Positions 2,339 through 57,451 of a stretch of DNA of 57,451 nucleotides are shown here, piece by piece (the first letter of the stretch is position 1; each line of letters opens with the position of its first letter). The notes under the pieces are model-generated. The model saw nothing but the letters and a program-made list of their open reading frames with translations, was not told the DNA's origin and did not search any database. Source of the DNA: a virus; IMG/VR virus record IMGVR_UViG_3300046059_000043, positions 1 through 57,451 of that record; one strand, written 5' to 3'. The position numbers and the translations under genes are program-made.

Positions 2339-2413
2339 GAAAAAAAGTCGGTAGGGTGTCGGCAGAAAAAATGCCGGTAGGGGCACCGCCTGCGAAAAAA
2401 CGCAGGTAGGGGG
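2339..2413 (-). promoter_or_regulatory. Three tandem copies of the A-run/CGGTAGGG box (minus strand: CCCTACCG-N-T6-7-C)
   Basis: Plus strand: GAAAAAAAGTCGGTAGGG (2339-2356), GAAAAAATGCCGGTAGGGG (2365-2383) and GAAAAAACGCAGGTAGGGGG (2394-2413). They begin 22 nt upstream of the ATG at 2317. Confidence 0.45.
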
Positions 2414-5353: not shown

Positions 5354-5695
5354 GGGCTTCGGGGGGTGTAGTTCCGGTGTGCGTGTGAAGAATCATGCGT
5401 CGGGCAACCCAACCCACAAAATTTTTTGCGCCCGAAAACCTCTTAGTGTTACGGTTCTCTGCAGTATCGGCACGCATTCCCGTGGTATATGCCACTTTGT
5501 CACCAACCGTAACGCATTCACACGGGAACCAGGGGTTGTGTAATTTTTACCCGACCCGAAACCGGGACGCCGCCCCAACACGCGTGATTTCAGGTTCCGC
5601 AATCCCCGCCGGAACCACATTGACATTCCCCACTTGATTCCCGACCAGCGGGCCGTTACCTTCTCCGTCCGTTCTTCTCACAGGGACGCAGGCGT

Positions 5696-6739
5696 ATGGC
5701 AACAGCAGCGACCATTTTCAGCGGCGGTGGCGGTGCAGACATCGGCTTATCGCAGGCGGGCTTGGGTGTGCGCTGGGGAATCGAGCAGGACGAGGCTGTC
5801 GCTCAGGTGGCCCGCGAGAACGGGTTACCCGTGCAGGTTGGGGACGTGACGGAGGTGGATCCGGGGTCGTATGAGGCGGTGGATGTGCTTCACGCCAGCC
5901 CGCCCTGTCCGAACTTTAGCGTAGCGAAGACGGCGGGTAAAGAGACGGAGGAGGATGTGTCGCTCGCCCGAGGGGCGGTTCGGTTTGTTCGGGGTGTTGA
6001 ACCGAAGCTGTTCACGCTTGAGAACGTGTGGGGATACCGGAAGAGCGATAGCTGGCGACTCATTCGGGAGGTGCTTCAGGGGGAGGGGTATCGGTGGAAC
6101 GCGTGGCGGCTCTGCGTAGCCAACTACGGGGTACCGCAGACGCGGAAGCGGATGATTGTTGCAGCGCGGAAGTGCGGGCCGCGACCGACGAGGCCGCCCG
6201 CCACGCACGCGGAGGAGCCAGGAGGAGGGGGGCTTTTTGGGGAGGGTCTGAGCGAGTGGGTTGGTTGGTACGAGGCGGTCCAGGACCTCATTCCGGGCCT
6301 TCCGGAGACGGAGCTGGCGGACTGGCAGAAGGATCGTCTTCCGGACGAGCTGGTGGAGACGACGATTGTTGACACGCAGCCGAATGCGCGGGGGCAGTGC
6401 CGTCGGGGGGCAGAGCCGACGAAGACGGTCGCGGCGGATCCGTCGGGGGGAGTGCCGCGGGCCGTTTTGGTCAGCAATATGAATACGGAGTGGGGCGATG
6501 GGATGCATGAGGGGGATGAGCCATCTCTTACAGTGACTGATCAACACGGAGGGCGTCTTCGGGCCATGTTGGGCCGCCGCGTCGTTCAGATGACGCCGCG
6601 CTGCCTGGCTCGCTTTCAGAGCTTCCCCGACTCCTACGAGCTGCCAGAGAGCAAGAGTCTCGCCTGCCGCATCATCGGCAACGCGGTCCCGCCGCTGGCG
6701 ATGCGGAAGTGGATCCAGAACTGGACGAAACACCCGTGA
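5696..6739 (+). CDS. DNA (cytosine-5)-methyltransferase
   Basis: C5-MTase motifs appear in order: I IFSGGGGADIG, IV HASPPCPNFS, VI TLENV, VIII QTRKR, X GNAVPP. Confidence 0.92.
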   Translation: MATAATIFSGGGGADIGLSQAGLGVRWGIEQDEAVAQVARENGLPVQVGDVTEVDPGSYEAVDVLHASPPCPNFSVAKTAGKETEEDVSLARGAVRFVRGVEPKLFTLENVWGYRKSDSWRLIREVLQGEGYRWNAWRLCVANYGVPQTRKRMIVAARKCGPRPTRPPATHAEEPGGGGLFGEGLSEWVGWYEAVQDLIPGLPETELADWQKDRLPDELVETTIVDTQPNARGQCRRGAEPTKTVAADPSGGVPRAVLVSNMNTEWGDGMHEGDEPSLTVTDQHGGRLRAMLGRRVVQMTPRCLARFQSFPDSYELPESKSLACRIIGNAVPPLAMRKWIQNWTKHP

Positions 6740-6798
6740 CATACCCCACGTAGTAAGAATCCACGTTCAAGTCATCCACTGACAGCCCGCTCGGACCC

Positions 6799-8196: not shown

Positions 8197-8697
8197 ATGA
8201 GCGAGTCAGGAGCAGAGCCAGAGCCGGATTGGATGGAGGTCAAGCCCGGGCGGCTCTCAGTGTCAGGCCGGTCGCTTGTTGACGAGGAGGAGGTCGTCGT
8301 GGCCGAGGTGAACGGGCTGGCCTATCCGGAGGGCGTCCTCACAGAGATCGCGTGGCGGTACAACAAGTATCCGGGCCTAAAGAGCACCCGGAGTGATCTC
8401 CGAGAGGCGATCTCTGATGCCTGCTTCGCGCTGAATCACGGCAATACTGATCGTGCGAAAGGGTACCTGCTATTCGCCCTCGGCGAACGAAAACGGCCAT
8501 CTGATGAGCAGCAGTTGCGGGAGGCGCTCACCACACGTCGCTCCCACGACCGCATCTCCGGCACGGGCATCCTGCGGAGGGCAGCCGAGCAGGTGGATTC
8601 TCAGGCCCTGGCCCGAGACCTGATGTCGATGGCGTCGGATGTCGACGCCGCCCTGAACGGCAGCTCCGCTAACGACAGCCCCGCCAGCGATGAGTGA
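8197..8697 (+). CDS. hypothetical protein (166 aa)
   Basis: ORF track gives 8185..8697. The first ATG is at 8197 (MSESGAEPE...). Confidence 0.6.
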   Translation: MSESGAEPEPDWMEVKPGRLSVSGRSLVDEEEVVVAEVNGLAYPEGVLTEIAWRYNKYPGLKSTRSDLREAISDACFALNHGNTDRAKGYLLFALGERKRPSDEQQLREALTTRRSHDRISGTGILRRAAEQVDSQALARDLMSMASDVDAALNGSSANDSPASDE

Positions 8698-8983
8698 CCC
8701 GCTCTACCAGGTTGTCCACTACCTGAATAGCAATCTCACGGATCTCGGCGTGAAGCTGAAGGTGGGCATGGAGACGACTGTGCGGACAACCGTCATTATC
8801 GGCCCCCTAGAGCATGAAACGGATCTGCATGTGCGCATCACTGAGGAAGGGTGGGAGCTGGCCGGTCCGGAGGCTCAGGTCCAGCGCATCGAAGAGGAGA
8901 TCCGAGACCGGCTCGCCGTCCGGCCCCGATTGAGGAGCCGATTTCTGGAGCCGGTCTCGGATCTCCTCATCGCAACAGCATGA
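8690..8983 (+). CDS. hypothetical protein (97 aa)
   Basis: ORF track. The start overlaps the previous stop by 8 nt. Confidence 0.6.
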   Translation: MSDPLYQVVHYLNSNLTDLGVKLKVGMETTVRTTVIIGPLEHETDLHVRITEEGWELAGPEAQVQRIEEEIRDRLAVRPRLRSRFLEPVSDLLIATA

Positions 8984-9225: not shown

Positions 9226-9336
9226 TCCTACCCAGGGCAACCCTTCATGAGGCTCCAAAGAGCGACAGCTACGAAGAAACAGATAGAGCACCCACTTGCA
9301 GAGCATCTACTTACGAATAGCACCCTTCACTACCCA

Positions 9337-9363
9337 CTCATAAGGCGCAACAGACGCTATGAG
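9337..9363. repeat. 27-bp sequence CTCATAAGGCGCAACAGACGCTATGAG, repeated in perfect inverted orientation at 56682..56708
   Basis: The reverse complement of 56682-56708 equals 9337-9363 exactly. Both copies include a start codon and its 22-nt leader. Confidence 0.9.
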
Positions 9364-9943
9364 CAGGCAAAAGAAGCTCCCGAAAGTTCTCTCCAATGAG
9401 GAGACGGACTCTCTCTTTCAGCAACCGAACCGGCGCTACTTCAGCCCGCACCGCGATTACCTGATGATGCGGGTCATGCTGATGGCCGGGCTGCGGGCCG
9501 AGGAGGTGACGACGCTTCGGCCCGAGCACGTAGACCTTCAGACCGGCAAGACGAATGTCGTGGAGGGCAAGGGCGCGAAGGACCGCAACGTGTGGCTCTC
9601 CGATGGGGTCTTGTCGGAGCTGCGGGAGTGGCGGGCGCGGCGGGCAAATGCGGATCTCGGGTCGCAGTCCGCCGCCCCCCTCTTCCCGACGCAGAACGGG
9701 ACGGCGGTCGCGACCTCTCACCTGCGGCGTTCGGTAAGCCGGTACGCCAGCGATGCTGAGATCCGCGGGGTCTCCCGCGTGAGTCCGCACACGCTCAGGC
9801 ACACCTTCGCCACGCGCCTCTACAAGCAAACCGGCGACATTCGGCTGGTCCAGAAGGCGCTCGGGCACTCCGACGTGTCGACGACGATGATCTACACCCA
9901 CATCGTTGACGACGACTTGTCCAGCGCGATGCGGAGCCTGTAG
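9359..9943 (+). CDS. int: Tyrosine recombinase/integrase, catalytic domain only (194 aa)
   Basis: Catalytic signature: MAGLRAEE (Arg I), EGKGAKDR (Lys), HTLRHTFAT (His-x-x-Arg), LGHSD (His), TMIYTH (Tyr). The protein starts at the beginning of the catalytic domain, with no N-terminal core-binding domain. Confidence 0.85.
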   Translation: MSRQKKLPKVLSNEETDSLFQQPNRRYFSPHRDYLMMRVMLMAGLRAEEVTTLRPEHVDLQTGKTNVVEGKGAKDRNVWLSDGVLSELREWRARRANADLGSQSAAPLFPTQNGTAVATSHLRRSVSRYASDAEIRGVSRVSPHTLRHTFATRLYKQTGDIRLVQKALGHSDVSTTMIYTHIVDDDLSSAMRSL

Positions 9944-11107: not shown

Positions 11108-11115
11108 GCAGGTTC

Positions 11116-11130
11116 GAAACCGACAGGTTC
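11116..11130 (+). promoter_or_regulatory. GAAACCGACAGGTTC element, 2 nt upstream of the ATG at 11133
   Basis: The same 16-mer, CGAAACCGACAGGTTC, recurs at 15522-15537. It is a near-variant of the GAACC-N4-GGTTC palindrome. Confidence 0.4.
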
Positions 11131-11424: not shown

Positions 11425-11748
11425 ATGAAACAGAAAGTTGCCATCGCTCGCGCGAAGCAGGTCCTCGCCCCCGAGATCAAAGGGCACTGCCCCACGGAGA
11501 TCCCCATTCACCTGAGTGCCTCGGAGGATCCGACCGAGGTGATCGGATGGCTCGTCGGACAGGCGTACGTGAATTACCTCACTGATGACGGCCTCTCCGA
11601 GGGAAAGGCCAAAGAAATCGTTGCTGATCTCGCCAGCAGCAGCACTGTCAGCCTGGATGTGATCGTGCCGAAGGAGGCGACAGCTTCCGAATCGACAGAT
11701 TCAGGACTGAAAGGTCCACAATCGACAGATTCGGAACCGACAGCGTAA
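11425..11748 (+). CDS. hypothetical protein (107 aa)
   Basis: ATG at 11425 (MKQKVAIARAK...) inside ORF-track entry 11287..11748. The 3' end carries AATCGACAGATTC direct repeats. Confidence 0.5.
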   Translation: MKQKVAIARAKQVLAPEIKGHCPTEIPIHLSASEDPTEVIGWLVGQAYVNYLTDDGLSEGKAKEIVADLASSSTVSLDVIVPKEATASESTDSGLKGPQSTDSEPTA

Positions 11749-11779
11749 GAACCAACAGGGTCATAAGCGAAAGCTCAAG

Positions 11780-12091: not shown

Positions 12092-12376
12092 ATGTCCCTT
12101 GAGAAGCTCAAAGAGAGGGTCCTTACCGTCACGCAGGCCGCGCAGGAAAAGGGCTGTGAGCGGAAAACGATCCGCCGAGCCGTGTATCGGGGCGACCTGA
12201 CCCGGTTTGAACTCGGCGTCCCGCAGCGCGTCCTCATTCTCCGCGATAAGCGCTACAAGGAGTGGGAGCCGGACCCAGTCCCATTTCAGTTTCGATCCTT
12301 GGACGAGATTCGGGCGGAGGAAAGTGATACGACAGAAAACGGCTCAACCGAAGACGACTCAACTGAAGACGATTGA
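12092..12376 (+). CDS. Helix-turn-helix DNA-binding protein, possibly excisionase-like or a regulator (94 aa)
   Basis: LTVTQAAQEKGCERKTIRRAVYRGDL is an HTH-like segment near the N-terminus, followed by an acidic tail. Confidence 0.55.
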   Translation: MSLEKLKERVLTVTQAAQEKGCERKTIRRAVYRGDLTRFELGVPQRVLILRDKRYKEWEPDPVPFQFRSLDEIRAEESDTTENGSTEDDSTEDD

Positions 12377-12424: not shown

Positions 12425-13249
12425 ATGTTTTTTGCACAGGCTAACCATGAGAAACAGGCCGCCGAGGCGCTGAACAGGTCCCTCGCCGAGCACGAGCCGC
12501 GGTCCGTCTTTCTGCTTTTCAGCGGCGGACACGACTCGCTCGTATCCACCCACTTCTCGAACCTGTTTCTGCGGTCGAAGGGGCTGGATCCGACCGTCCT
12601 GCATATTGACACGACGATCAGCGTCCCCGAAAATGAGCAGTTCGTCCGGCAGACGGCCCGCGACCTGAAGTGGGCACTGCGGATCATCCGTAATGAGGAG
12701 CATGACGGCAAATCCTACGAGGAGTGGGTCCTCGATGAGGGCTTCCCGACCCCGTTGGACCACGTGTTCGTCTACGCCCACCTGAAGCGGGAGGCCATCC
12801 GCCAAGTCGTGCGCGAAGAGAAAGAGGAGCGCTCAGATCGGGTCCTATTCGTCACCGGCGTCTACGCGGGGGAGTCCGGTCGCCGGGCCGGGTTCCACGA
12901 ACCAGAGAAGCGGGTCGGCGCTCAGGTGTGGGTCAACCCCTGCTTCGACTGGTCCGAGTCTCAAATGGCTGAGTATCGCCGCCGCCATCACTTGCCGACA
13001 AATGAGCTCGCTGCCGAGTACGGAACCTCGCCGGAGTGCCTCTGCGGAGCGTTCGCGCACCCTGGTGACCTGGAGGCTGTTGAGCACATCTGCCCGGCCC
13101 TGGCCGCAAAAATTCGGAAGCTCGATGAGATGACGACAGGGCGGGGGTATCCCTGGAGCTGGGACCACGATGAGATTCCCCAGCGCTGGAAACAGGAAAA
13201 AGAAGGTCAGAAGTCCCTTTTCGAGCCTCTTTGCACAGACTGTGGATAA
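12425..13249 (+). CDS. PAPS-reductase-family PP-loop ATP pyrophosphatase, paralog 1 (274 aa)
   Basis: PP-loop VFLLFSGGHDSLVSTH, a later ECLCG element and a C-terminal CTDCG. Clearly paralogous to 13818..14720. Confidence 0.75.
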   Translation: MFFAQANHEKQAAEALNRSLAEHEPRSVFLLFSGGHDSLVSTHFSNLFLRSKGLDPTVLHIDTTISVPENEQFVRQTARDLKWALRIIRNEEHDGKSYEEWVLDEGFPTPLDHVFVYAHLKREAIRQVVREEKEERSDRVLFVTGVYAGESGRRAGFHEPEKRVGAQVWVNPCFDWSESQMAEYRRRHHLPTNELAAEYGTSPECLCGAFAHPGDLEAVEHICPALAAKIRKLDEMTTGRGYPWSWDHDEIPQRWKQEKEGQKSLFEPLCTDCG

Positions 13250-13254
13250 CTGCT

Positions 13255-13812
13255 ATGCCCACCCGCTGTATTCGGTGCAACAGACCGCTTTCCGATCCTC
13301 GCTCTATCGCCCGAGGCATGGGGCCGGTGTGCGCCCGAAAGTCCGGCTTCACCGGCGAGAAGACCTCCAGGGAGATGCGAGACTTCCACGACGCCCGCGT
13401 GTGGGAGGACGTTACCCTCCAGGACGCCCTCGTGCTAGAGCGGGAGCCCCGCTCTGAGAAGATGGACCTGGCGAAGACCAACGTGCCGCACTTGGTCGTG
13501 CACCACTCCCCGACCGGCTTTGAGTGGGGGTACTCCGGGTCCGGGCCCGCCGACCTGGCGCTCAACGTCGTGCACTTCTTTGTCGAGGAGATGGACCTGG
13601 CCGAAGAGACGCAGGAGAGAGTGGTTGAGTGCCGTGAAGGAGAGGTTTCCCAGCTCGCCTGGGACCTGCACATCCCGTTCAAGGAGGAGGTGATCGCCAA
13701 TATCAGTGAGGATGGGGGCCGCCTCACCCCGACGCGGATCCGGGACTGGATCATGGAAGCCGCTGAGAATCGGTTCCATGACTCCGGCCCACAAGACACC
13801 CAAGTACAGTAA
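13255..13812 (+). CDS. Zinc-ribbon protein (RCIRCNRPLSDPRSIARGMGPVCARK) with a C-terminal domain of unknown function (185 aa)
   Basis: ATG at 13255. From memory, the CxxC...GxGPxC motif resembles small actinophage proteins of the DUF6011 type, and VVHHSPTGFEWGYSGSGPADLA resembles DUF6166. HMM confirmation is needed. Confidence 0.5.
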   Translation: MPTRCIRCNRPLSDPRSIARGMGPVCARKSGFTGEKTSREMRDFHDARVWEDVTLQDALVLEREPRSEKMDLAKTNVPHLVVHHSPTGFEWGYSGSGPADLALNVVHFFVEEMDLAEETQERVVECREGEVSQLAWDLHIPFKEEVIANISEDGGRLTPTRIRDWIMEAAENRFHDSGPQDTQVQ

Positions 13813-13817
13813 ACCCG

Positions 13818-14720
13818 ATGAGCACGCTTCAAGAAGCGCTCCACAAAGGCAAAACGGCTCTCCGCGAGGCCATCGGTGAGCATGAGCCGAACCAGGTGTT
13901 CGCGGCCTTCTCCGGCGGGACCGACTCGCTGGTTGCGGCCCACGCCCTGCATAAGGCGCGGCTCGGCTGTATTGGAACGCCGGTGGCCGCGCTCCACATC
14001 AACACCGGCATCGGGATGCAGCGCACCCGAAAGTACGTGCGCAGCACCTGCGATCGGATGGGGTGGGACTTGGTTGAAGAGAAGGCCACCGACAACGGCC
14101 ACCGCTATGAGGACCTGGTGCGGGGGAAGCAAAAGGGTGTGCCGGGCGGCTTTCCAGGCCCGCCCCTGCACCCGCTCTACTACCGCTACCTCAAGGAGCG
14201 CCAGATTGAGCAGGTCCACCGCGATTATAAGGGGGGGCGGGGCGGCAAGATTATGCTCGTCACCGGCATCCGGGCCGACGAGAGCCGCGTGCGGGCCGGA
14301 TACGAGAACGGGTGGATCTCCCATCACAATGGCGTCGTCTGGGTCAACCTGATCTACGACGTGACCGCCAGCCAGAAGCAAACCTACATCGACACCTTCG
14401 GCCTGGAGACCAACCCCGTCTCCGACGTGTTCGGAATGAGCGGGGAATGCCTCTGTGGGTGCTTCGACGAGAACGGCGGTCGGCTGACCGAACTGAAAGC
14501 CTGCTGCAAGCGTTTTGATGAGATGGAGACCTACCGGCGCATCACGGGCCTTCAAGACGAGGTCTCCGATCGATACCCGTGGCGATGGGACGAGCGGAAG
14601 CCCGGCTGGGCCAAGCAGGCCGAAGAGGGGCAGCTTGCGTTTGAGGGCCTTCCCGGCGCAGAGAAAAATAACCGCCTCGCTCACATGTGCGTCGGGTGCG
14701 GGAAGTCAGGGACCGCGTAA
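13818..14720 (+). CDS. PAPS-reductase-family PP-loop ATP pyrophosphatase, paralog 2 (300 aa)
   Basis: PP-loop VFAAFSGGTDSLVAAH, GECLCGCF, YPWRWD, C-terminal CVGCG. It aligns by eye with paralog 1 along its whole length. Confidence 0.75.
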   Translation: MSTLQEALHKGKTALREAIGEHEPNQVFAAFSGGTDSLVAAHALHKARLGCIGTPVAALHINTGIGMQRTRKYVRSTCDRMGWDLVEEKATDNGHRYEDLVRGKQKGVPGGFPGPPLHPLYYRYLKERQIEQVHRDYKGGRGGKIMLVTGIRADESRVRAGYENGWISHHNGVVWVNLIYDVTASQKQTYIDTFGLETNPVSDVFGMSGECLCGCFDENGGRLTELKACCKRFDEMETYRRITGLQDEVSDRYPWRWDERKPGWAKQAEEGQLAFEGLPGAEKNNRLAHMCVGCGKSGTA

Positions 14721-15508: not shown

Positions 15509-15537
15509 GAAGCGACAGCTTCGAAACCGACAGGTTC
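15509..15537 (+). promoter_or_regulatory. Two adjacent GACA-loop hairpins or palindromes: GAAGCGACAGCTTC followed by GAAACCGACAGGTTC
   Basis: Read directly. They fill the 47-nt spacer before the GTG start at 15544. Confidence 0.4.
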
Positions 15538-16566: not shown

Positions 16567-16995
16567 ATGGACCTTGAAGAGTTCAACACGAAGTTCGGCG
16601 CGAGCGAGGAGGAGGTTCATAAGCAACTGGTCGAATACCTCGACCACGCGGTAGAGGAGGCCGCGCTCCTCTTCCACCCGGCCAACGGCGGCCTCATGCC
16701 AATGGGTACCGCCGGGAAGCTCAAGGGGATGGGATTAAGACAGGGCGTGCCCGACCTGCTGCTCGCGCTCCCGAAGGCGGACAAGCATGGCCTCTTCGTC
16801 GAGCTGAAGACGAAGGAGGGCCGCCTCCGGGGGAAGCAGGTGTGGTGGCTCTACCACCTCCGGCGTCAAGGCTTTGGGGCGATCTGCTGCCGCGGCTTCG
16901 AGGACGCCCGGACCCGCATTACCGCCTACATGGGCGGCAACTACAGCGAGCACCCCCTCCCTACCGAGCGCATCAAAAAGCCCGATCACGTCTGA
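16567..16995 (+). CDS. VRR-NUC domain nuclease
   Basis: GVPDLLLALPKADKHGLFVELKTKEGRLRGKQVWW matches the VRR-NUC PD...ExK core. Confidence 0.85.
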   Translation: MDLEEFNTKFGASEEEVHKQLVEYLDHAVEEAALLFHPANGGLMPMGTAGKLKGMGLRQGVPDLLLALPKADKHGLFVELKTKEGRLRGKQVWWLYHLRRQGFGAICCRGFEDARTRITAYMGGNYSEHPLPTERIKKPDHV

Positions 16996-17420
16996 TGGAC
17001 AAGCAGAGCAACGGACACCCGGAGCCGCCGACCGACGAGTATCCGCCCGACCCGCCGGAGGTGTGCCGCTACTGCCGCAGCCCTGTGAGCCTCGTCAGCG
17101 CAGAGGAGGTCTATCCGGGCATGGGGCTGGAGGCAAAACTCTACTTCTGCGAGGGATGCGGCGCTCGGGTCGGCGTGCACGAGGGGACCGACGACCCCGT
17201 TGGCTACCTGGCCGACGCGGAGCTCAGGCGGTGGCGGCGCGTCCTGCACGAGGCGCTGAGGGAGCTCCGAAAGCCGCGCTTCTACCAAAAATCGGTGCAC
17301 GGACTCATTCGAGAGGCCCTCGGCGTGCCTAGGGAGCGCGCCCGCGTGGCGATGCTCTCGATCGGGGAGGTCAAGAACATGATCGTGTGGCTGATGCGAC
17401 AGGGACCCGAAATCTCATGA
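16995..17420 (+). CDS. Zinc-finger protein (141 aa)
   Basis: The ATG overlaps the upstream TGA. Contains CRYCRSP ... CEGCGARVGVH followed by RRWRRVLHEALREL. From memory this resembles phage zinc-finger domain proteins such as DUF3268. Confidence 0.5.
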   Translation: MDKQSNGHPEPPTDEYPPDPPEVCRYCRSPVSLVSAEEVYPGMGLEAKLYFCEGCGARVGVHEGTDDPVGYLADAELRRWRRVLHEALRELRKPRFYQKSVHGLIREALGVPRERARVAMLSIGEVKNMIVWLMRQGPEIS

Positions 17421-18958: not shown

Positions 18959-19039
18959 TCTGGACCCCAGGGCTTTTTATTTATCAGTCCCACCTGTAGG
19001 TTTATCTTCTGCTCTCCTCCCCAAAAAGTAACAGACCCC

Positions 19040-20860: not shown

Positions 20861-20884
20861 CACCCACTGAGGGCGCAACAGACG
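20861..20884 (+). promoter_or_regulatory. CACCCACT-GAG-GGCGCAACAGACG box upstream of terL
   Basis: Closely resembles CTACCCACT-CATAA-GGCGCAACAGACG upstream of int (9330-9356) and its inverted copy near 56686. Confidence 0.4.
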
Positions 20885-38143: not shown

Positions 38144-41100
38144 ATGAGCAACGAGTTTTTCTCTACGTCTCTCCGGACGCGGGCGGGGACACTCGTCTTA
38201 CGAATGATCGATGACCGCCCCAACCCGACCACGATCAACTTCGGCTATTCCGTCGAGAGCGGGATTGACCTGCGCTGGGGCGAAGGTCGGTCAACGGGGT
38301 ATGGGGAACCCGTGGTGGGATCGTTTGCCGACATTACGGTCAAGGACCCGGAGAATCGGTTCCAGCAGTTCTTCGGGACCGAGTTCGATGAGCTAAGCTT
38401 CAAGGCCCTGATTGAGGGGAGCGTTGAGGGGCACCAGTTCCAGTGGAAGGGGCGCGTGCAGCAATCCCAGTTTGACCGCCCCGTAAGCCCGAGGGTCCAG
38501 AGCGAGCGAAAGACGATCCGCCTCTACGATCGGCTCGGGGCGCTGAAGGACAAAAACCCCATCCCCCGCCCGGAGATCCTGGATGTTGAGGAGTTTCTGA
38601 TGCGGACCCTGTTTCCGGCCCAGCCAAACGTTGACATCCTCTACGACATCGATGTGGAGGGGGCCTCATATTTTGACGGGTCCCCCGTCCCGCCGCAGGA
38701 GTGGTACCCCACCACCCGGCGCCCAGCCACCCGAGACGTGGGGGACACAGACGACGTGGACGATGAAGGCATCGGAGGGGGCTCCCTCCGCGAGCAGTTG
38801 GAGACGTTTGCGGGGCGCCTCGGCCTCAAGGTGTGGCAGGAGCCGTTTACGGGCACGTTCCACGTGGTGCCCCGCTTTCGGGTCGGAGAAGAGATCACGG
38901 ATGCCACCCGCATCACGTCGAACGGCTATCCCCTCGACGATAGCGCAACGCCCAGTTTCGACCGCTCGGCGACCATCCCTCAGCTTCTGGTTCAGGACCC
39001 GCCGCTGCGGGCGGAAAATCAGGACCGTTACCAGTCGGTCGAGGGGGTCAAGAAGGTGACCGTTGAGATCGAAAACTCGCCTCTCCTGAAGAACCCGCAC
39101 TTCAAGCTTTACGAATTTGTAAACAGCCGCACGGGGAGCCTGGAGGACTTCACGGCGGACTTTCTGTTCTGGGAGCAGGCCGAGAACCCGTACTTTGCGC
39201 AGAAGATGCAGGTGCTGTGGCCGTACAACAACCGCGTCTGGCGGAGCGAAGAGGAGGCAAACGACTACGTGGGCCTCAATGTCGTTGAGGACGACAATCA
39301 GCTCTCCCTGCTGCGGCAGCAAACGCGGCCCGTCTCGCGGCAGGACTTTCCCGTCACCGCGCGGCTTCTGTACCGAGCCGTGCCCATTGATCCAAACGCT
39401 CAAAAGAACGACGGATACGTCTTCAACCTCATCCTTGAGCACGTCCGAGACGACGGCACAACCAGTAGGGTCGAGACGGAAGAAATCACACCCACCTTTT
39501 TTGGGGCAGGTCTTGAGCCAGCCACCATCCCTGACGAGAAGTTTATTGAGACGCCCGCCTCACGTGAGGCGGGCCAATACAGGGTCACCGTTTCGGGAAA
39601 TAATATCTGGTTCAAGGTCGTCGGATTTGAGCTTACCGTTCAGAACCCGTCAGGGGATAACCTTCTCCTTTCGTCAATTGACATCACCCCCACCGACAAC
39701 GAGAAAGGGCGGAAAGAAGTCCAGATTAGCGATGATACCTTCTACTTCAACGGGGAGCTAAATCGGCTGAAGAATCCCCTCGGGCGAACCCAGTTTATCG
39801 AGAACTGGGAGAAAGAAACGCAACCGACGGTGCAGCCGATTGACTGGTCCAGCCCCCGCCTTGGCCGCAACTACGACAACCTGTATAAGTATCGGGCCGT
39901 CGCTCGGCTCGCCCAGCAGCCCCCCGGCACCGATGCGCTACAGACCCTGGTGGTGCCTGGCATCTTGACGCCAGGGCGAGCCATCGACATCCAGGATGAG
40001 GGGCGCCTCATTTTTGCCGGTGGGCGGACCGTGCACCTGACCGGTGAGGAGACGGGCACGACGGAACTCAACGACATTGTCGTCCCTGAGGTCCTTTCTG
40101 ATCCGATCGACCCTGGGGCTCGCCCAGAGGCGCCGGACATCCTTCTGACCTCGTTCGCCACGTACGACCTGACCGCGCAGGACGCGAGCCGAATCGAGGG
40201 GTACAAGCTGTCTCGCCGGAACGCGCCCGACGCGCCGGAAACGGAAGTTGAGCAGGCGGCGAGTCAGAATAGCCCTGAGAGCGTCGCGGATCCGAACCCG
40301 GCACCCGGCATGAACCTACATGTCGCGCGGACCTACAACTCGAACGGCGACAGCCCGCCCTCCCGCGAGGCTTTGCAGCTTCCCTCCGGCTGGTATAAAG
40401 ATGGGGATCCCGAGTTTTCGCCGAATCCCATTCCGAGCCCATCGGCAGGCGCGTCTAATGCCGCCCTGATCGACGGGGAGATGTACATTTTTGGCGGCAT
40501 AGACGGCTCTGGGCAGCACGCGCGCTGCTATAAATACGACGTGTGGGCCGACACGTGGACCCAGCTCCCGAATTATCCGGAGGGGCCGACCGAAGGACTT
40601 TTCGCTGCCGCGAGTCCCCCGAACGGCGGGATTATCGTCGGCGGCGGTATTGGCCCGGGCGGCGCTCGGCCTGGGACGCACTTCTGGAACCGATCCGTTC
40701 CGGAGTGGCAGCCGCTCGATAATTTGCCAGAACCGATCGGATACGGCGCCGTGGCCCGAGGGCGCGGCAGCGGAAACTACGAAATTCTGATCGCCCACGG
40801 CGGAGAGGATGGCGCAGGAGCCGCCACAAGCGCCGTGCAGCGGCTGAACTTAAATTCAGGGGCATGGGCTACCCTAAGCGACGCGCCCTTCTCAGAGCGT
40901 CGTCACGGCGCGGTCTACAGGCAGAGCGATGACCTGTGGTATGTGTTCGGCGGGGCGGAGGACCGCTCGCGCCTGTGGCAGTTCAACGCAAGGCAGGACG
41001 CGTGGTCATCGGTTGGGAGCGCCCCGCCCACGCCCGTATCGGAGTACGGAATCGCGTACTCAAACGCACAAGACTCTGCGTTCCTGATTGGCGGGACGCC

Positions 41101-41476
41101 CAGCGGGGGCGGCCAGGCCGAGCAGCCGCAGGAGTATTCGTTCTCCGCAGGCGCGTGGACGGAGCACGCCGGAATGCCGACTCCCAGAAGCGAGGCGCGG
41201 GGCGTCTTCATCGACGGCTTTGATGTTCTGTTCGCGGTCGGCGGGGACGGTGGCTCGCCGACGGGCATCAATGAGGTGTATGTCCTCGGGCTCAACCTCA
41301 AAAAGTCGGGCAGCGAGCCGACGTGGACGAGCTGTCAGGACTACACCGTGGATGAGCCGCTCACCGAAGAAAACGCGCCCACGTGGACGAGCTGCCAGAA
41401 CTACACCGTGACCGCCGAAACCGCAAACACGGCACCGCAGTGGACGAGCTGTCAGGATTATACGACCTCTGAATGA
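38144..41476 (+). CDS. Large tail/baseplate protein with a C-terminal Kelch-type beta-propeller and three terminal PTWTSCQDYT modules (1110 aa)
   Basis: Repeated Kelch-like blades (MYIFGGIDGSG...YKYDVWADTWTQLP; LWYVFGGAEDRSRLWQFNARQDAWSSV; FLIGGTP...YSFSAGAWTEHAGMP). It directly follows the tape measure gene. Confidence 0.75.
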   Translation: MSNEFFSTSLRTRAGTLVLRMIDDRPNPTTINFGYSVESGIDLRWGEGRSTGYGEPVVGSFADITVKDPENRFQQFFGTEFDELSFKALIEGSVEGHQFQWKGRVQQSQFDRPVSPRVQSERKTIRLYDRLGALKDKNPIPRPEILDVEEFLMRTLFPAQPNVDILYDIDVEGASYFDGSPVPPQEWYPTTRRPATRDVGDTDDVDDEGIGGGSLREQLETFAGRLGLKVWQEPFTGTFHVVPRFRVGEEITDATRITSNGYPLDDSATPSFDRSATIPQLLVQDPPLRAENQDRYQSVEGVKKVTVEIENSPLLKNPHFKLYEFVNSRTGSLEDFTADFLFWEQAENPYFAQKMQVLWPYNNRVWRSEEEANDYVGLNVVEDDNQLSLLRQQTRPVSRQDFPVTARLLYRAVPIDPNAQKNDGYVFNLILEHVRDDGTTSRVETEEITPTFFGAGLEPATIPDEKFIETPASREAGQYRVTVSGNNIWFKVVGFELTVQNPSGDNLLLSSIDITPTDNEKGRKEVQISDDTFYFNGELNRLKNPLGRTQFIENWEKETQPTVQPIDWSSPRLGRNYDNLYKYRAVARLAQQPPGTDALQTLVVPGILTPGRAIDIQDEGRLIFAGGRTVHLTGEETGTTELNDIVVPEVLSDPIDPGARPEAPDILLTSFATYDLTAQDASRIEGYKLSRRNAPDAPETEVEQAASQNSPESVADPNPAPGMNLHVARTYNSNGDSPPSREALQLPSGWYKDGDPEFSPNPIPSPSAGASNAALIDGEMYIFGGIDGSGQHARCYKYDVWADTWTQLPNYPEGPTEGLFAAASPPNGGIIVGGGIGPGGARPGTHFWNRSVPEWQPLDNLPEPIGYGAVARGRGSGNYEILIAHGGEDGAGAATSAVQRLNLNSGAWATLSDAPFSERRHGAVYRQSDDLWYVFGGAEDRSRLWQFNARQDAWSSVGSAPPTPVSEYGIAYSNAQDSAFLIGGTPSGGGQAEQPQEYSFSAGAWTEHAGMPTPRSEARGVFIDGFDVLFAVGGDGGSPTGINEVYVLGLNLKKSGSEPTWTSCQDYTVDEPLTEENAPTWTSCQNYTVTAETANTAPQWTSCQDYTTSE
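41318..41467 (+). repeat. Three in-frame copies of the P(T/Q)WTSCQ(D/N)YT module (periods of 60 and 57 nt)
   Basis: PTWTSCQDYTV at 41318-41350, PTWTSCQNYTV at 41378-41410, PQWTSCQDYTT at 41435-41467. Confidence 0.9.
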
Positions 41477-43149: not shown

Positions 43150-45087
43150 ATGTCAAAGCTGGTCACGAAGAGACTTTTTGCGCGGGTTGTGGTGTGGCAG
43201 CCCGCGACGGGGGCCGTCATCGACCTCCCGTCCCGATCGGTAACGGCAGGTGGGGGCTTCTCTCGGGACGAGAATCGAGCGGTGATGTCCGACGGCTCCG
43301 CCGAGCCGACCAGCCGCAGTCATAGTCTGAGGATCCCGATGTCGCACGAGGAGGCGCGTGTGGCAAGTCGGTTGTTCCGGCTCAATAGCTGTCCCGCGCG
43401 GGCACTGCTCATTGGCGTGGAGGGAACCGAGCACGTCCTCTGGCACGAGGAGACGCGCGTCAACATCGAAAGTTCAGAGACTGACCCAGGCCAGTCCGCG
43501 AAGGACCTCGTGCTGGAGTCCTCGATCTTCAACCCGGCGATCTTTCGCGGCATGAACCTGATTGAGGGGGTTCCTTGGCAGGCAACGGAGGCCAAAGACA
43601 CTGGCTCCGGCTTTGAGATGCGGTATCCGGGCGGCGGGTACCGGCCCGGCTACGAGGGACCCGCGTTCGGCGTAGGATCTGAAGACGTGGAGGTCGACAT
43701 GCTCGGCGTCCCGAGCGGCCTTACAGAGGCGACCGTTCAATTTGAGTTTCCGGCGTGGGGATCCGTCCTCAAGCTCGGCGCCGTCACCGGATACACGCTC
43801 GATAATGGAATCCTGAAGGCCCTGGACTGGAATGAGTCGGTGCTCGCGTTCGTCGGTGCGGGGCAGGAGCTTGAGGTTCCGGATCGCACGTGGTACGTAG
43901 AGATTGGGCTGGGCGACGCTGGGGGGCGGCCCCGCCTCGATGTGGTTCGGCCTGGCGTGGGGCAGGGCAAGTTTCTGACCGGAAACCGCGAGAAGGCGTG
44001 CGAGCGCTCCGCCGAGGAGCCGCCGTGGGACGAGATCCCTGAGCCGAACGAGCCGCCGCGGTGGGTGCGGAAAGAGCCGCTCGTGTACGGACTCGACAAC
44101 ATCCCGCCCACGTGGACGAGCTGTGAGGATTACACGACCTCTGAGGAGGGCACGGGTGGAGACAATTCACCGCCCACGTGGACGAGCTGCCAGGATTATA
44201 CTACGACGGAGGAGCAGGCTGAGCCGCCGGAGGAGACGTTCACGTACACGGCCCCGAACGTAGGGCCAACGAGTTACATCTTTACCGCCAGCGGCGGATT
44301 CTCGCGCTTTGATTACTTCCCGGCTCAGTCAAATTACGAGAACTATTTGGATCAGGACGCCGCCTACGACCTGGCCGTTGACGAGTCTGCGGGCTACGTA
44401 TTCCTTGCCATCCAGGAGGCCATTCGGCGCTTCGACTTGAGCGGCGGCTCCGGGACCAATGTGCTGCAAGAGTCCGGCAACGATCCAGTCGGGATTGCCG
44501 TCGACCCGCTCACCCAAGAGGTCTACTTCAGCTACCAGCAGCAAACGGGCATTTACAAGATTGCCTACGACGGGAGCGGGAAGACGCAGGTTGCCAGCGA
44601 CGCGGGGGAGGCGTATGCCCTCGGCGTGGCCCCGGACGGGGGCGACGGCGCGTACATCTTCGGCGTGAGTCCGACGGCGCAAGAGATTGCCCGCTGGAAC
44701 GCGGACGGGTCCGGGAAGAAGGTGCTGAAGGACCTTTCCGGAACGGTCTATTACCTCCAGCGCAACTGCCACCTGCACCTGGAGGGGGCGTGGGTCTTTT
44801 ACCAGCAGTCCAAGTCTGACTCACAGAGAAACGTGCGCCGCATCTCGATGGGCGGGGGCACCGATGAAGGAATTTTTCTTGAGGCGTCTACGTACACGAT
44901 CGCTGACCACCAGTATTGGACCGTGCTTCAAGAGGAGGATAAGTGGATTCAGCTCGAATCCGCAGAGGACGGAGCAACGCGAGTAGAAGAGCGAAACTTG
45001 GATGGGAGCGGTACTACATCCACGACCCTCTCAGGCACCTCCTATGACCTCGGAGAACGGATTGCTTCTGCACAGCTTGTCAGCTAA
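43150..45087 (+). CDS. Tail protein with two central PPTWTSC(E/Q)DYTT modules and a C-terminal YWTD/NHL-like beta-propeller (645 aa)
   Basis: Modules at 44104-44139 and 44170-44205. Propeller-like blades: GIAVDPLTQEVYFSYQQQTGIYKIAYDGSGKTQV; YALGVAPDGGDGAYIFGVSPTAQEIARWNADGSGKKVL. Confidence 0.65.
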   Translation: MSKLVTKRLFARVVVWQPATGAVIDLPSRSVTAGGGFSRDENRAVMSDGSAEPTSRSHSLRIPMSHEEARVASRLFRLNSCPARALLIGVEGTEHVLWHEETRVNIESSETDPGQSAKDLVLESSIFNPAIFRGMNLIEGVPWQATEAKDTGSGFEMRYPGGGYRPGYEGPAFGVGSEDVEVDMLGVPSGLTEATVQFEFPAWGSVLKLGAVTGYTLDNGILKALDWNESVLAFVGAGQELEVPDRTWYVEIGLGDAGGRPRLDVVRPGVGQGKFLTGNREKACERSAEEPPWDEIPEPNEPPRWVRKEPLVYGLDNIPPTWTSCEDYTTSEEGTGGDNSPPTWTSCQDYTTTEEQAEPPEETFTYTAPNVGPTSYIFTASGGFSRFDYFPAQSNYENYLDQDAAYDLAVDESAGYVFLAIQEAIRRFDLSGGSGTNVLQESGNDPVGIAVDPLTQEVYFSYQQQTGIYKIAYDGSGKTQVASDAGEAYALGVAPDGGDGAYIFGVSPTAQEIARWNADGSGKKVLKDLSGTVYYLQRNCHLHLEGAWVFYQQSKSDSQRNVRRISMGGGTDEGIFLEASTYTIADHQYWTVLQEEDKWIQLESAEDGATRVEERNLDGSGTTSTTLSGTSYDLGERIASAQLVS

Positions 45088-49126: not shown

Positions 49127-49164
49127 GGCACTCAGTGGGGTTTTTGAAAGGGTGCAGTGAAACG

Positions 49165-49182
49165 AAAAAATGCGGGAGGGGG
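49165..49182 (-). promoter_or_regulatory. A-run/G-box (AAAAAATGCGGGAGGGGG), 38 nt upstream of the ATG at 49126
   Basis: Member of the repeated box family. The next element is palindrome 49187-49200. Confidence 0.4.
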
Positions 49183-52720: not shown

Positions 52721-52804
52721 AGGGCGGGGACGGTCGCGTTACTCGGCAGGTAATTCAATGGGGTTTATGACGTGAAACCCCACGGGTTCCTTCGGGGGCG
52801 GCAG

Positions 52805-52821
52805 AAAAAAGTCGGTGGGGG
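52805..52821. promoter_or_regulatory. A-run/G-box (AAAAAAGTCGGTGGGGG) in a divergent 141-nt spacer
   Basis: It lies 84 nt upstream of the minus-strand ATG at 52720 and 40 nt upstream of the plus-strand ATG at 52862. Confidence 0.4.
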
Positions 52822-53174: not shown

Positions 53175-53297
53175 ATGCGCCAGACGGTCATAGAGTCGGT
53201 GAACGTGAGAGTCGTTGCGGAAGCGGTCCGGAGCGTGGGAGTGCAGAACACCCCGCCCACGTGGTCCTCGTGCCAAGACTACACGTATGCAAAGTGA
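53175..53297 (+). CDS. Unannotated 40-aa ORF ending in the tail-protein module (MRQTVIESVNVRVVAEAVRSVGVQNTPPTWSSCQDYTYAK)
   Basis: Hand translation. It is below the ORF-track cutoff. PPTWSSCQDYT (53253-53285) matches the module repeated in ORFs 38144..41476 and 43150..45087. Confidence 0.5.
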   Translation: MRQTVIESVNVRVVAEAVRSVGVQNTPPTWSSCQDYTYAK

Positions 53298-53330
53298 CGG
53301 AGGGGGGCTGTAGCCGGTAAGCGTCAGCAG

Positions 53331-53422
53331 AAAAAACGCGGGTGGGGGTTGTCGGTCGCCAAAAAAAGTCCGGTGGGCACCCGCCCACCCGCTTGCGGCA
53401 CGCGAAAAAATGTCGGTGGGGG
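53331..53422 (-). promoter_or_regulatory. Three tandem A-run/CGGTGGGG boxes with no leftward gene downstream
   Basis: AAAAAACGCGGGTGGGGG (53331-53348), AAAAAAAGTCCGGTGGGC (53361-53378) and AAAAAATGTCGGTGGGGG (53405-53422). The middle copy overlaps a GGTGGGC-ACCC-GCCCACC hairpin. Confidence 0.4.
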
Positions 53423-55079: not shown

Positions 55080-55099
55080 GATCTCAGTAGGTTGATGAG

Positions 55100-55123
55100 A
55101 AAAAAAGACGGTCGGCCCCACCG
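55100..55123 (-). promoter_or_regulatory. A-run/G-box (AAAAAAAGACGGTCGGCCCCACCG)
   Basis: Member of the box family, upstream of the ATG at 55079. Confidence 0.4.
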
Positions 55124-55546: not shown

Positions 55547-56686
55547 CTAGTCGGTGTGCGTATTGATCTGGTGCACATCGACCGGGGATTCGAACACTTC
55601 GTGCCACGTATCCCCAAGGTCGATCATGTGGTGATCCCGGCGCGTGTGTCCGACGCGGCACCGGATAAAGAGGCGCGTTCCGCGGCTTTTGCCTGTTGGC
55701 GATTCGGTCTGGACGGCGGCGCGCTTGTGCTTGTGGGATCCGAGCGCCCAATGAATTTTCTCCGCGCCGGGAAGCTTGATCGGATCCACCGAAGGGCGGG
55801 GAACGAAGAAGTACTCGCCTTGACGGACGATCACCGATCCTTGCAGGTCGGCCCGACAGAACTGGTAGTTGACCGTTCGGTCTGATCGGTACCAGTATTT
55901 TTTCACCGATGTCTTGCCCCCGGCTTCGCGGTGGGCTTCGGCTTCCTCGTCGGTAAGATCGTGTTTGCGGTACTCATCCGACGTGATTACCGGAAGGCCG
56001 CTCGGGAACGCCTCCGTGCCGCGCATTGCCGTAGACACGTCGTCCGGCCTTAGATACTCGACAATGGCCGCCCGCACGCCTTCCGCCTCCGCGTACTCAA
56101 CCACGAAGGGCAGAAGGTCGACCGTAAACCGCCCGCCGTTGCGGGCGGTGCGGTCGTGGCCTACGCCGACCGCCCCTTCGTGCCCGTCAATCAGAACGAT
56201 ATGCCAGCGCCCGTACGCGCCGGTGCGGGGATCGGCCTCACTTTTGACATTGGTGATGTCGTACGCGTCGGTGCTGCCTGTGCGGCGGATTCGCCGTCGG
56301 CCCGTGCACCTGCGGCTATCGCTCATGTGCGCCTCTATTGCAGAGAGGGGCAGTCGGTAGTCCGCTCCGGGGGCGGGCGAGCAGTGAGCAAAGCCGGTGC
56401 TCCAGCACTGCGCGTTGTTGATGATGAGCCCGGACACGGTCCGAATCGCCTCCCGGGTGCGGTAGTGCCAGAGCGTCCCCGCGCCGTCGGGGTGCTGCTG
56501 TCCCTTGAAGTTAGGGGAGGAGTAGAGCCGCCCCTCGTTGTGGGTTGGGTATTTTCCTTCCGCCCAGGCGCGGGCCACGTCGTCTTGTCGGTCGTAGCAA
56601 GCACGCGACGTTGGTTCGTACCGTGGATGCGGGACACACGTGTCCGTCTTGGATGTGTCTGTTTTGGGTACGGTTCGGGTACTCAT
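55547..56686 (-). CDS. hypothetical protein (379 aa)
   Basis: ORF track. Its start codon and 22-nt leader are identical to those of the integrase gene. Confidence 0.65.
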   Translation of the reverse strand: MSTRTVPKTDTSKTDTCVPHPRYEPTSRACYDRQDDVARAWAEGKYPTHNEGRLYSSPNFKGQQHPDGAGTLWHYRTREAIRTVSGLIINNAQCWSTGFAHCSPAPGADYRLPLSAIEAHMSDSRRCTGRRRIRRTGSTDAYDITNVKSEADPRTGAYGRWHIVLIDGHEGAVGVGHDRTARNGGRFTVDLLPFVVEYAEAEGVRAAIVEYLRPDDVSTAMRGTEAFPSGLPVITSDEYRKHDLTDEEAEAHREAGGKTSVKKYWYRSDRTVNYQFCRADLQGSVIVRQGEYFFVPRPSVDPIKLPGAEKIHWALGSHKHKRAAVQTESPTGKSRGTRLFIRCRVGHTRRDHHMIDLGDTWHEVFESPVDVHQINTHTD

Positions 56687-56708
56687 AGCGTCTGTTGCGC
56701 CTTATGAG
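56682..56708. repeat. Inverted copy of the 27-bp int-leader sequence (partner of 9337..9363)
   Basis: CTCATAGCGTCTGTTGCGCCTTATGAG is the exact reverse complement of 9337-9363. Confidence 0.9.
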
Positions 56709-56725
56709 AAAAAAAGTGGGTAGGG
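56709..56725 (-). promoter_or_regulatory. A-run/G-box (AAAAAAAGTGGGTAGGG)
   Basis: On the minus strand it reads CCCTACCCACTTTTTTT, directly abutting the 27-bp repeat. The int copy has CTACCCA and then CTCATAAGG without the intervening 8 nt CTTTTTTT (the C and T7 run). Confidence 0.45.
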
Positions 56726-56752: not shown

Positions 56753-56766
56753 GAACCCGTCGGTTC
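56753..56766. promoter_or_regulatory. GAACC-N4-GGTTC palindrome (GAACCCGTCGGTTC)
   Basis: Perfect 5+5 inverted repeat. Confidence 0.4.
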
Positions 56767-56891
56767 AGAGCCCCGGCGGGCCGCCCTACTGGCACAGAGG
56801 ACCGATGAAGAACTGTCACCAGCGGGCCGCCCGCCGCGGCCCCGCCGATCCGACAGGATCTTAGGAGTTCCGTTGGGGACCGCGGTACGGG

Positions 56892-57299: not shown

Positions 57300-57329
57300 C
57301 GGTTTGGTGCCTCTCGGCGGTTGGTTCAG

Positions 57330-57345
57330 AAAAAAAGACGGTGGG
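57330..57345 (-). promoter_or_regulatory. A-run/G-box (AAAAAAAGACGGTGGG)
   Basis: Member of the box family, upstream of the ATG at 57299. Confidence 0.4.
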
Positions 57346-57396: not shown

Positions 57397-57451
57397 GGGG
57401 GACCCTCTCAGGTCCCATTCTACGCCCGCAGCGTCAGTACCACCGAAAATG
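57397..57451. repeat. Second copy of the 55-bp terminal direct repeat
   Basis: Exact match to 1..55. Confidence 0.95.

Follow-up and report, generated by a model that had tools for sequence, protein, structure and literature searches.

The IMG/VR virus record IMGVR_UViG_3300046059_000043 was analysed over its whole length of 57,451 nucleotides (the window), and the subject of this work is a 27-bp leader sequence that stands in two identical copies at the start of two genes. One of them, int, encodes a Xer-like tyrosine recombinase of 194 amino acids (aa), and the other, open reading frame (ORF) 379, hereafter ORF379, encodes a conserved protein of 379 aa. The window ends in a 55-bp direct repeat (1-55 = 57397-57451), which indicates a circular assembly of 57,396 bp where the segment between the two 27-mers, measured across the junction, is 10,024 bp long. 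Rightward genes occupy ~5.4 to 48.2 kb and include those for a C5 methylase, int, PAPS-reductase-like proteins, nucleases, terminase, portal, and tail proteins, and leftward genes fill 48.3-57.4 kb and go on through the junction to ~5.3 kb. int belongs to the former block and ORF379 to the latter; thus, the two genes diverge, and the 27-mers are inverted for this reason. The features at the two gene starts are the following.

9330..9336, plus strand: CTACCCA abutting the 27-mer, apparently a T-less remnant of the CCNACC half of a leftward promoter-like motif
9337..9363, plus strand: int-side 27-mer leader, -22..-1 plus ATGAG of int
9347..9355, plus strand: GCAACAGAC, 3 nt before the ATG of int
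9359..9943, plus strand: int, 194-aa Xer-like tyrosine recombinase, catalytic domain only (Pfam PF00589 Phage_integrase, E=5.8e-36)
55547..56686, minus strand: ORF379, 379 aa, conserved, ATG at 56686; 23 homologues, found in metagenomes only
56682..56708, minus strand: ORF379-side 27-mer leader, -22..-1 plus ATGAG of ORF379
56690..56698, minus strand: GCAACAGAC, 3 nt before the ATG of ORF379
56708..56724, minus strand: CCTACCCACTTTTTTTC, a complete CCNACC-N3-T7 motif upstream of ORF379
56765..56845, minus strand: 30-pair hairpin in a noncoding block of ~81 nt, immediately upstream of the ORF379 promoter-like motif (consensus -61 kcal/mol)

The 27-mer CTCATAAGGCGCAACAGACGCTATGAG at 9337-9363 on the plus strand has its exact reverse complement at 56682-56708, i.e., on the minus strand. 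The first-pass annotation had described a perfect 27-bp inverted repeat holding both ATGs and had judged it unlikely to arise by chance. The window search bears this out, and each ATG starts a real gene; no further copy with up to 3 mismatches was found in the window, and the pair had 0 matches in 100 dinucleotide shuffles. The absence of shuffle matches, together with the occurrence of the same leaders in independent assemblies, rules out both chance and an assembly artefact. Exactly as that annotation had it, the similarity continues upstream, where 7 more nucleotides are identical (CTACCCA at 9330-9336 and 56723-56717) and the sole difference is the 8-nt CTTTTTTT at 56716-56709, which provides the T-run on the ORF379 side and is missing at int.

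In a 23-member alignment of the ORF379 family, M1 is invariant and the N-terminal stretch is conserved (P19, Y23, R28), and for this reason the start is placed at ATG 56686. The source gene call for ORF379 (P0001) gives a protein of 343 aa, with a start 36 codons downstream, and probably begins too late by this distance. Many other residues of the family are also invariant, e.g., C94, W95, C102, and H347. None of the homologues bears an informative name (two are labelled “hypothetical protein”), and ORF379 found no match in Pfam, PHROG, or NCBIfam. Its AlphaFold2 (AF2) model is confident (pLDDT 82.4, pTM 0.79), and the predicted structure has no match in PDB or BFVD.

Relatives are few and come from an IMG/VR sequence of 17 kb (L002; int at 91% identity, ORF379 homologue at 75%), a 30-kb sequence (L003/L032; int at 81% identity and the terminase region), a Logan contig of 56.7 kb (L116; ORF379 homologue at 49%, a 192-aa int, and the same divergent layout), and short contigs with ORF379 homologues (L117, L118, L123-L125). 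On the question, raised in the first pass, of whether related genomes keep both copies, the int copy is kept in L002 and L003 but the full pair is not. The int leader is identical to that of the window at 27/27 positions in L002 and at 26/27 in L003, the proteins being 81-91% identical. Among the ORF379 leaders, that of L125 is the same as the int leader up to the ATG, those of L117 and L123 have 2-3 substitutions, and that of L124 carries an inserted CACTGAG module and CCAACAGAC. An 11-nt insertion in the ORF379 leader of L002 and L118 leaves only AAGGCGCAACAGACG (15 nt) plus TATG in common with int. In L116, int and the ORF379 homologue have only the 11-nt CGCAACAGACG in common, which abuts the ATG at int; at ORF379, it is 40 nt away from the ATG, and the T-run stands downstream of it. 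The CTACCCA at int is replaced by CTGTCCA in both L002 and L003, so that it is not constrained at this place and is decaying. The T-run is present in 8/8 independent ORF379-type leaders and absent in 4/4 int leaders; this fits the proposal that the int copy is devoid of the promoter-like part, the T-less int leader and the T-run leader of ORF379 being fixed in every relative. The two arms are probably copies of one leader module in front of two opposite genes, rather than a recombination site.

The int protein aligns to XerD residues 105-285 only; all of the R, K, HxxR, H, and Y motifs are present, the core-binding domain is missing, and profile scans recognised no separate ORF for an N-terminal domain near int. 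Its best NCBIfam matches are the C-terminal (catalytic) halves of XerC/XerD/XerA (~150 bits, all below cut-off), and with the FimB/FimE invertase models it reaches 46.6 bits for NF007371 (cut-off 222) and 43.2 bits for NF007370 (cut-off 221). A family of ~190-aa Xer-like proteins (L004-L020, L036, L037, L039, L041, L044, L078, and L089) has a conserved architecture upstream of int, for which no published description was found in a literature search. Two direct repeats of ~14 nt, each combining GTGAAT with a part that varies along with the int sequence, flank a sigma-70-like promoter (ACTTGA...TATAAT). A dif/lox-like dyad, e.g., CACCTATAAT-atgt-ATTATAGGTG, is formed by the second of them and is located at -46..-58 from the int ATG. 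In 10 other family members (L004-L007, L010, L013-L018, and L089 among them), the dyad at this position matches at 8-10/10 with a spacer of 4-9, and no dyad of such quality was found between -160 and +25 of the int ATG in the window, L002, or L003. The dyad and repeats of the family are probably a binding, recombination, or autoregulatory site. The 27-mer was considered as the core site of the family Int and rejected since the family dyad sits elsewhere and is much better formed. A 25-bp inverted repeat at 8890-8972 was dismissed as a partner of int because it is window-specific, has a coding left arm, and is absent in L002/L003. This plus-strand repeat, at the 3′ end of ORF 8690-8983, has 96% complementary arms and a 33-nt loop, its right arm being a window-specific extension.

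The core motif and the T-run family

Parts of the leader recur beyond the 27-mer pair. A third copy of the core CCCAC-N(4-14)-GGCGCAACAGACG is found at 20863-20884, in front of a terminase-like gene; the third exact copy of GCGCAACAGACG is located there, at 20873, with CCCACT in front as at int. The 9-mer GCAACAGAC has six exact copies, at 9347 (+), 13277 (+), 20875 (+), 27516 (+), 55073 (-), and 56698 (-). Besides the two in the leaders, the following copies, one of them with a mismatch, are of note.

13277..13285, plus strand: GCAACAGAC, 22 nt after the probable ATG 13255 of a DUF6011/DUF6166 gene
19028..19036, plus strand: GTAACAGAC (1 mismatch), 3 nt before ATG 19040; exact in the L003 orthologue, GCAACAGAC-gcc-ATG
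20863..20884, plus strand: CCCACTGAGGGCGCAACAGACG, third extended element, T-less, after a terminator-like hairpin and 64 nt before the terminase-like ATG 20948; same place in L003
27516..27524, plus strand: GCAACAGAC, intergenic, 19 nt upstream of a CGCACCTACTCTTTTTC motif and 62 nt before ATG 27586; kept in L032
55065..55073, minus strand: GCAACAGAC, just inside the gene starting at ATG 55076; also in the L116 orthologue, in another frame

Block-wise Markov simulations, which respected the composition of each strand block, predict 0.26 sense and 0.075 antisense copies of GCAACAGAC, against the 6 and 0 observed, and 0/200 simulations reach 6. The six exact copies all fall within -73 to +22 nt of a start codon, and the sense orientation is found in 6/6 exact copies and in 16/16 copies at <=1 mismatch. 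The spacing of 3 nt between GCAACAGAC and the ATG is seen in 4/4 int leaders and 7/8 ORF379-type leaders, as well as at gene 19040 and its L003 orthologue, whereas the distance from the T-run motif to GCAACAGAC varies from 10 to 21 nt. In L116, 5 copies were counted over 21 kb. The gene downstream of ORF379 that starts at 55076 begins with ATG GAC GCA ACA GAC in the window and with ATG GAA CCG CAA CAG ACG in L116; the motif is thus in different reading frames and is conserved as nucleic acid, not as protein. In ORF379 homologues at 36-40% identity, both GCAACAGAC and the T-run motif are absent. In the isolated Salinibacter phage B2_17 (L122), GCAACAGAC in the stretch 11509-11530 directly follows the ATG of the coding sequence B2_17_20 (ATG CCT GAC GCA ACA GAC), whose start resembles that of window gene 55076; with only two copies in the 44 kb of B2_17, this may be chance.

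The CTTTTTTT missing at int turns out to be half of a recurrent leftward signal, CCNACC-N3-4-T6-7. T-run motifs like CCNACCNNCTTTTTTTC have 9 matches in the window against 0.12 expected, and the looser CCNACC-N3-4-T6-7 pattern has 11 copies, the good ones being confined to the minus strand, in intergenic regions of leftward genes. Apart from the motif in front of ORF379, the copies are as follows.

2339..2410, minus strand: three CCTACC-N3-4-T6-7 motifs, the last directly followed by GCATCAGAC; ATG 21 nt after the T-run motif
49164..49180, minus strand: CCCTCCCGCATTTTTTC motif copy, upstream of ATG 49126
52803..52819, minus strand: CCCACCGACTTTTTT motif copy, with 2 mismatches to the search pattern
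53330..53420, minus strand: three CCCACC-N4-T6-7 motifs
55099..55115, minus strand: CCGACCGTCTTTTTTTC motif, 19 nt upstream of ATG 55076
57329..57345, minus strand: CCCACCGTCTTTTTTTC motif, upstream of an ATG at ~57300

A distance of 19-37 nt to the following ATG is seen for most single copies and for the final motif of the 2339-2410 array, and in the leftward intergenic regions a long GC-rich stem-loop is combined with the T-run motif. The 30-pair hairpin upstream of ORF379 has almost the same sequence in L002, L118, and L116, the last having proteins at only ~49% identity, and 4 compensatory pairs were counted among 3 sequences; it is also present in L123 and has a diverged form in L124/L125. 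It has no match in Rfam and could be a terminator, an RNA-stability element, a structured RNA, or a DNA site. In the arrays at 2339-2410 and 53330-53420, the motifs are spaced by 26-43 nt, a layout like that of tandem operators or tandem promoters, and two T-runs of the former lie in short hairpin loops (CCTGCG-TTTTTT-CGCAGG and CGGCA-TTTTTTC-TGCCG).

Two other identities were tried for the T-run. As an intrinsic terminator, a few copies qualify, but in most of them the hairpin is 6-14 nt away or the T-run itself is in the loop; the common denominator of the copies is therefore sequence and not structure. An archaeal TATA box in front of leaderless genes would fit the -29..-21 spacing of three copies, but the terminase and portal match those of bacterial phages. 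The T-run motif is most likely a promoter of the leftward cassettes, which may sometimes serve as a terminator tail as well. Since the CCNACC-T-run motif is absent from phage B2_17 and from the distant ORF379 homologues, the signals appear to be lineage-specific.

Readings of the duplicated leader

The reading that we prefer, with a probability of roughly 0.62, is a duplicated leader module with a start-associated GCAACAGAC acting at the mRNA level. Its functional core would be an asymmetric cis-element, (C)GCAACAGAC(G), placed at several gene starts; this element would work at the mRNA 5′ end, as an enhancer of translation initiation or as a binding site for a factor in the initiation region. 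Action on mRNA is suggested by the fixed spacing to the ATG, the variable spacing to the T-run, the depletion of Shine-Dalgarno (SD) sequences, and the C/A-rich leaders. Over all predicted gene starts, SD-like 4-mers precede 12% against a background of 19%; the leaders of the window have 34% C and 27% A, and modules such as CACTGAG and AACCG-ATG recur in them. We infer from the sequence that GCAACAGAC acts at the RNA level and would provide the int and ORF379 proteins with a common expression setting, that the T-run motif would mark the leftward intergenic cassettes as their promoter, and that int, which has no T-run in any lineage, would probably be transcribed by read-through from the upstream rightward genes. 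The shared leader and co-regulation proposed in the first-pass annotation agree well with the reuse of the core at gene starts, sense and start-proximal, and with the assignment of the T-run to an 11-copy leftward family. In a more speculative form of this reading, GCAACAGAC would be a novel type of translation-initiation operator, used by SD-less (Bacteroidota-type) mRNAs and recognised by a phage factor.

Several observations weigh against this reading. Base composition alone predicts a sense bias of ~3:1 for GCAACAGAC, leaving the exact copies to carry the weight, and about half of the matches with 1 mismatch are background. The 3-nt spacing is found only in 2/6 exact copies of the window plus one 1-mismatch copy; two copies have their start codon 62-64 nt downstream and two are within the first ten codons (6 and 22 nt downstream), which is a poor fit to strict ribosome positioning. 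At window position 27516 and at 9952 in L116, GCAACAGAC is upstream of a T-run motif and would therefore be outside the mRNA if the T-run is a promoter. Sigma-70-type promoter prediction gave nothing in the leader region of int or ORF379, and some of the T-run copies are terminator-like. A hairpin sequestering the AUG (CUCAU/AUGAG) is predicted in 4/4 int leaders, including that of L116 with different arms, but against shuffles it is marginal (z of -0.95 to -2.2 for the int leaders, with one compensatory pair in four sequences). Owing to these weak z values and its absence in the ORF379 leaders of L002 and L116, it is retained as a weak possibility only.

A part of these difficulties would disappear if GCAACAGAC were read on DNA, either as a stoperator-like operator or as the core of a -35-less phage promoter, so that int, ORF379, and the terminase operon form one regulon. 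We rank this tentative alternative second; the 27-bp identity would still represent a duplicated regulatory module and not a recombination site. Copies on either side of a T-run, 62-64 nt before starts, or inside 5′ coding sequence are easier to accommodate by protein-DNA binding, and the copy after the terminator-like hairpin heads the structural operon, where late promoters or activator sites are typically found. The lineage-specific character of the motifs (B2_17 is without the CCNACC-T-run) argues for a phage-encoded reader, and stoperators provide a precedent for asymmetric, orientation-biased sites (PMC9283540). However, no repressor, sigma factor, or RNA polymerase was recognised, the scan of 38 non-structural ORFs for regulator families giving nothing but a weak HTH_17 match in ORF 12092-12376; the 3-nt ATG spacing in 11/12 int and ORF379 leaders is unexpected of an operator, and GCAACAGAC as a -10-like element would demand leaderless int and ORF379 transcripts. 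It is rather unlikely that the identity has no function of its own and goes back to a leader cassette duplicated or gene-converted recently, with a spread like that of the PeSL cassettes of T4-type phages; the 27-34 bp would then at most allow a rare accidental homologous inversion. The leaders are indeed mosaics, in which the T-run motif, CTCA, CACTGAG, GCAACAGAC, and AACCG-ATG vary in order and spacing, and the stem-loop with the T-run resembles composite promoter-terminator PeSLs (PMC2839356, PMC4122927). The ORF379 leaders also range from identity with that of int (L125) through 2-3 substitutions (L117/L123) to an 11-nt insertion (L002/L118). Yet the match of the int leader in L002 (27/27) and L003 (26/27) is above the neutral level at 81-91% protein identity, and the core persists at 49%, from which it follows that the sequence is under selection and is not merely a recent copy.

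The first-pass annotation had also offered the 27-mers as substrates for an inversion of the ~10-kb segment between them, and this proposal is not supported by comparison with the relatives. According to it, the Xer-like Int or another recombinase would invert the 10,024-bp segment and move the T-run promoter from ORF379 to int; the int-type flank ...AGCACCCTTCACTACCCA should then lead via the 27-mer into the ORF379 coding sequence and the hairpin/T-run flank into that of int. What makes this attractive is the perfect 27-bp inverted repeat itself, with the start codon of a recombinase that keeps all catalytic residues inside one arm; by the gene map, both genes would stay co-directional with their new upstream neighbours. 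Nevertheless, from ORF379 (55554) across the junction and on to 19.4 kb, L002 runs collinear with the window and is oriented like it, and the tblastx matches of L002 and L003 across the segment are all collinear and on the same strand, which rules out inverted synteny in these relatives; the gene layout of L116 around both sites is that of the window. Among 12 independent assembly observations of the junctions (8 ORF379-type and 4 int), 0 are swapped: the ORF379-type flank with the hairpin is found in 7/8 leaders, the L117 contig being too short upstream to tell, and the T-less int-type flank in 4/4. The repeats are not kept as a pair either, given the 15 nt plus TATG in L002/L118 and the relocated 11 nt in L116. 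A dif/lox-like dyad just upstream of int is a habit of the family, seen in many distant homologues, and the 27-mer does have the outer hexamers CTCATA/TATGAG, but as a 10-7-10 site it reaches only 7/10, below every family dyad, with the symmetry restricted to these hexamers, and it is placed at -22..+5 instead of -46..-58. One hexamer contains the CTCAT that also trails the T-run in another promoter-like copy, the other is made of ATGAG (Met-Ser), and the dyad is lost in the ORF379 leader of L002/L118 and in L116. Moreover, the core stands at four other gene starts, where the direct copy at 20875 would delete 11.5 kb on recombining, and int scores only 43-47 bits against the FimB/FimE models with cut-offs of 221-222. 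We therefore regard the inversion as highly improbable. A rare 10-kb inversion that works as a promoter-swap switch, with the public assemblies showing only the majority isomer, is likewise very improbable; its catalyst would be the catalytic-domain-only Int or phage homologous recombination on the 27-34 bp of identity. If true, the swap would pass both the T-run promoter and the conserved hairpin from ORF379 to int. The duplicated leader module thus remains our preferred reading, and the case holds a caution for repeat scans: an inverted repeat at the start of a recombinase gene suggests phase variation, and comparison shows a reused leader.

Genome setting and further repeats

The terminase and portal of the window have their best matches in Salinibacter ruber phages (50% and 39% identity, respectively), followed by other bacterial phages, and no archaeal virus was matched in this search. 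Megablast against isolated phages gave no match, no tRNA gene was found in the window, and an Rfam scan of the whole window returned no family. The window is the circular genome (~57.4 kb) of a phage from an uncultivated hypersaline lineage, closest to the Salinibacter phages. Bacteroidia are known for initiation without SD (PMC6847099), and the SD depletion and C/A-rich leaders of the window fit a Bacteroidota-type host.

A metagenome scan with int found only homologues at <=63% identity, all without the motif. IMG/VR scans with DNA patterns returned only L002 and L003 plus chance matches, and look-ups of the exact int and ORF379 proteins in other assemblies found no record. Scans with the terminase protein and with the leader DNA pattern gave nothing in ~186,000 species genomes, and hence neither an attB nor a prophage is indicated. 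Compared with the window, L002 is without 464-2437 (two leftward ORFs) and 5520-6765, which includes the C5 cytosine methylase gene 5696-6739. The former gap ends beside the triple T-run array at 2339-2410, which hints that cassettes form indel boundaries in a PeSL-like manner.

Three further groups of sequences were noticed. A peptide unit (P)PTW(T/S)SCQDYT is encoded on the plus strand at 41306-41476, 44095-44214, and 53244-53297: the 1110-aa ORF 38144-41476 carries three units at its C-terminus, ORF 43150-45087 contains two internally, and the 40-aa rightward ORF 53175-53297, which lies within the leftward block, has one at its C-terminus. A repeat family GTTCGAAACCGACAGGTTC / CGACAG(A/G)TTC occurs at 11109-11130, 11674-11762 (a four-unit cluster), 15509-15537, and 53531-53552; the GTTCGAAACCGACAGGTTC repeats may be iteron- or operator-like and mark an origin region. 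In the replication-side module, 12425-13249, 13818-14720, and 16842-17420 encode two PAPS-reductase-domain proteins and one DUF3268 zinc-finger protein, possibly a DNA-modification pathway.

Comparison with known regulatory repeats

By their layout, the two arms invite comparison with fimS/FimB-FimE and with the invertons of Bacteroides/Clostridioides, where inverted repeats, an adjacent small recombinase gene (~190-200 aa), and a promoter-like element within the segment, close to one of its ends, are likewise found. Two of five features of this type are present here (the inverted repeats and the adjacent recombinase) and three fail: the assemblies show a single orientation, the relatives do not keep the repeats as a pair with a dyad, and the recombinase is Xer-like, not of the FimB/E-like invertase family. 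The segment differs too, having 10 kb and ~15 genes instead of a few hundred bp.

The PeSL cassettes of T4-type phages combine a promoter with a stem-loop, and their role in indels comes from the comparison of near-identical phages (PMC2839356, PMC4122927). In the window, 11 CCNACC-T-run copies occur with long GC-rich hairpins in leftward intergenic DNA, their promoter activity being predicted from sequence. The likeness consists in repeated intergenic cassettes, promoter-like plus stem-loop, before unrelated genes in the plastic part of the genome, by which short identical repeats arise that can mimic recombination sites; the sequences, the host, and the promoter type differ. The stoperators of Cluster A mycobacteriophages (L5 gp71-type) number ~20-30 sites, at which the immunity repressor also stops elongation (PMC9283540, PMC6550527). 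Similar to GCAACAGAC, they are asymmetric, dispersed, oriented with transcription, and located in or near short intergenic gaps, but no repressor was recognised among the 38 non-structural ORFs scanned here, and a fixed 3-nt spacing to the start codon is not a stoperator trait.

The start-associated sequences (SAS/ESAS) of Cluster K mycobacteriophages come closest. SAS is a 13-bp sequence, GGGATAGGAGCCC, with an AGGAG SD core, present in 11-19 copies (Pope et al. 2011, PMC3203893). It is confined to the non-structural half of the genome, where it precedes the ATG by 3-7 bp in unrelated gene families and across subclusters, and its function is unproven (PMC3203893). Both SAS and GCAACAGAC are short, asymmetric motifs repeated within a lineage in a single orientation and attached to unrelated genes; GCAACAGAC is in the sense orientation throughout, and at some of its sites, those of int, ORF379, and gene 19040, it has the ATG 3 nt downstream. 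They differ in that the motif of the window has 9-11 nt, is C/A-rich, lacks an SD core, and occurs in 6 exact copies in an SD-depleted phage, some copies being 62-64 nt upstream or inside coding sequence, and there is no sequence relationship between the two. By analogy, GCAACAGAC would be functionally closest to SAS, yet it is not an SAS member. We see in it one more case of a familiar type of phage cis-regulatory repeat; what it adds is a small cis-regulatory vocabulary (GCAACAGAC, the CCNACC-T-run, and the conserved 30-pair hairpin) in an SD-less lineage related to Salinibacter phages. Should GCAACAGAC prove to govern initiation, it would help to study the way in which phages adjust expression in SD-independent hosts and would have a parallel in the SAS of mycobacteriophages.

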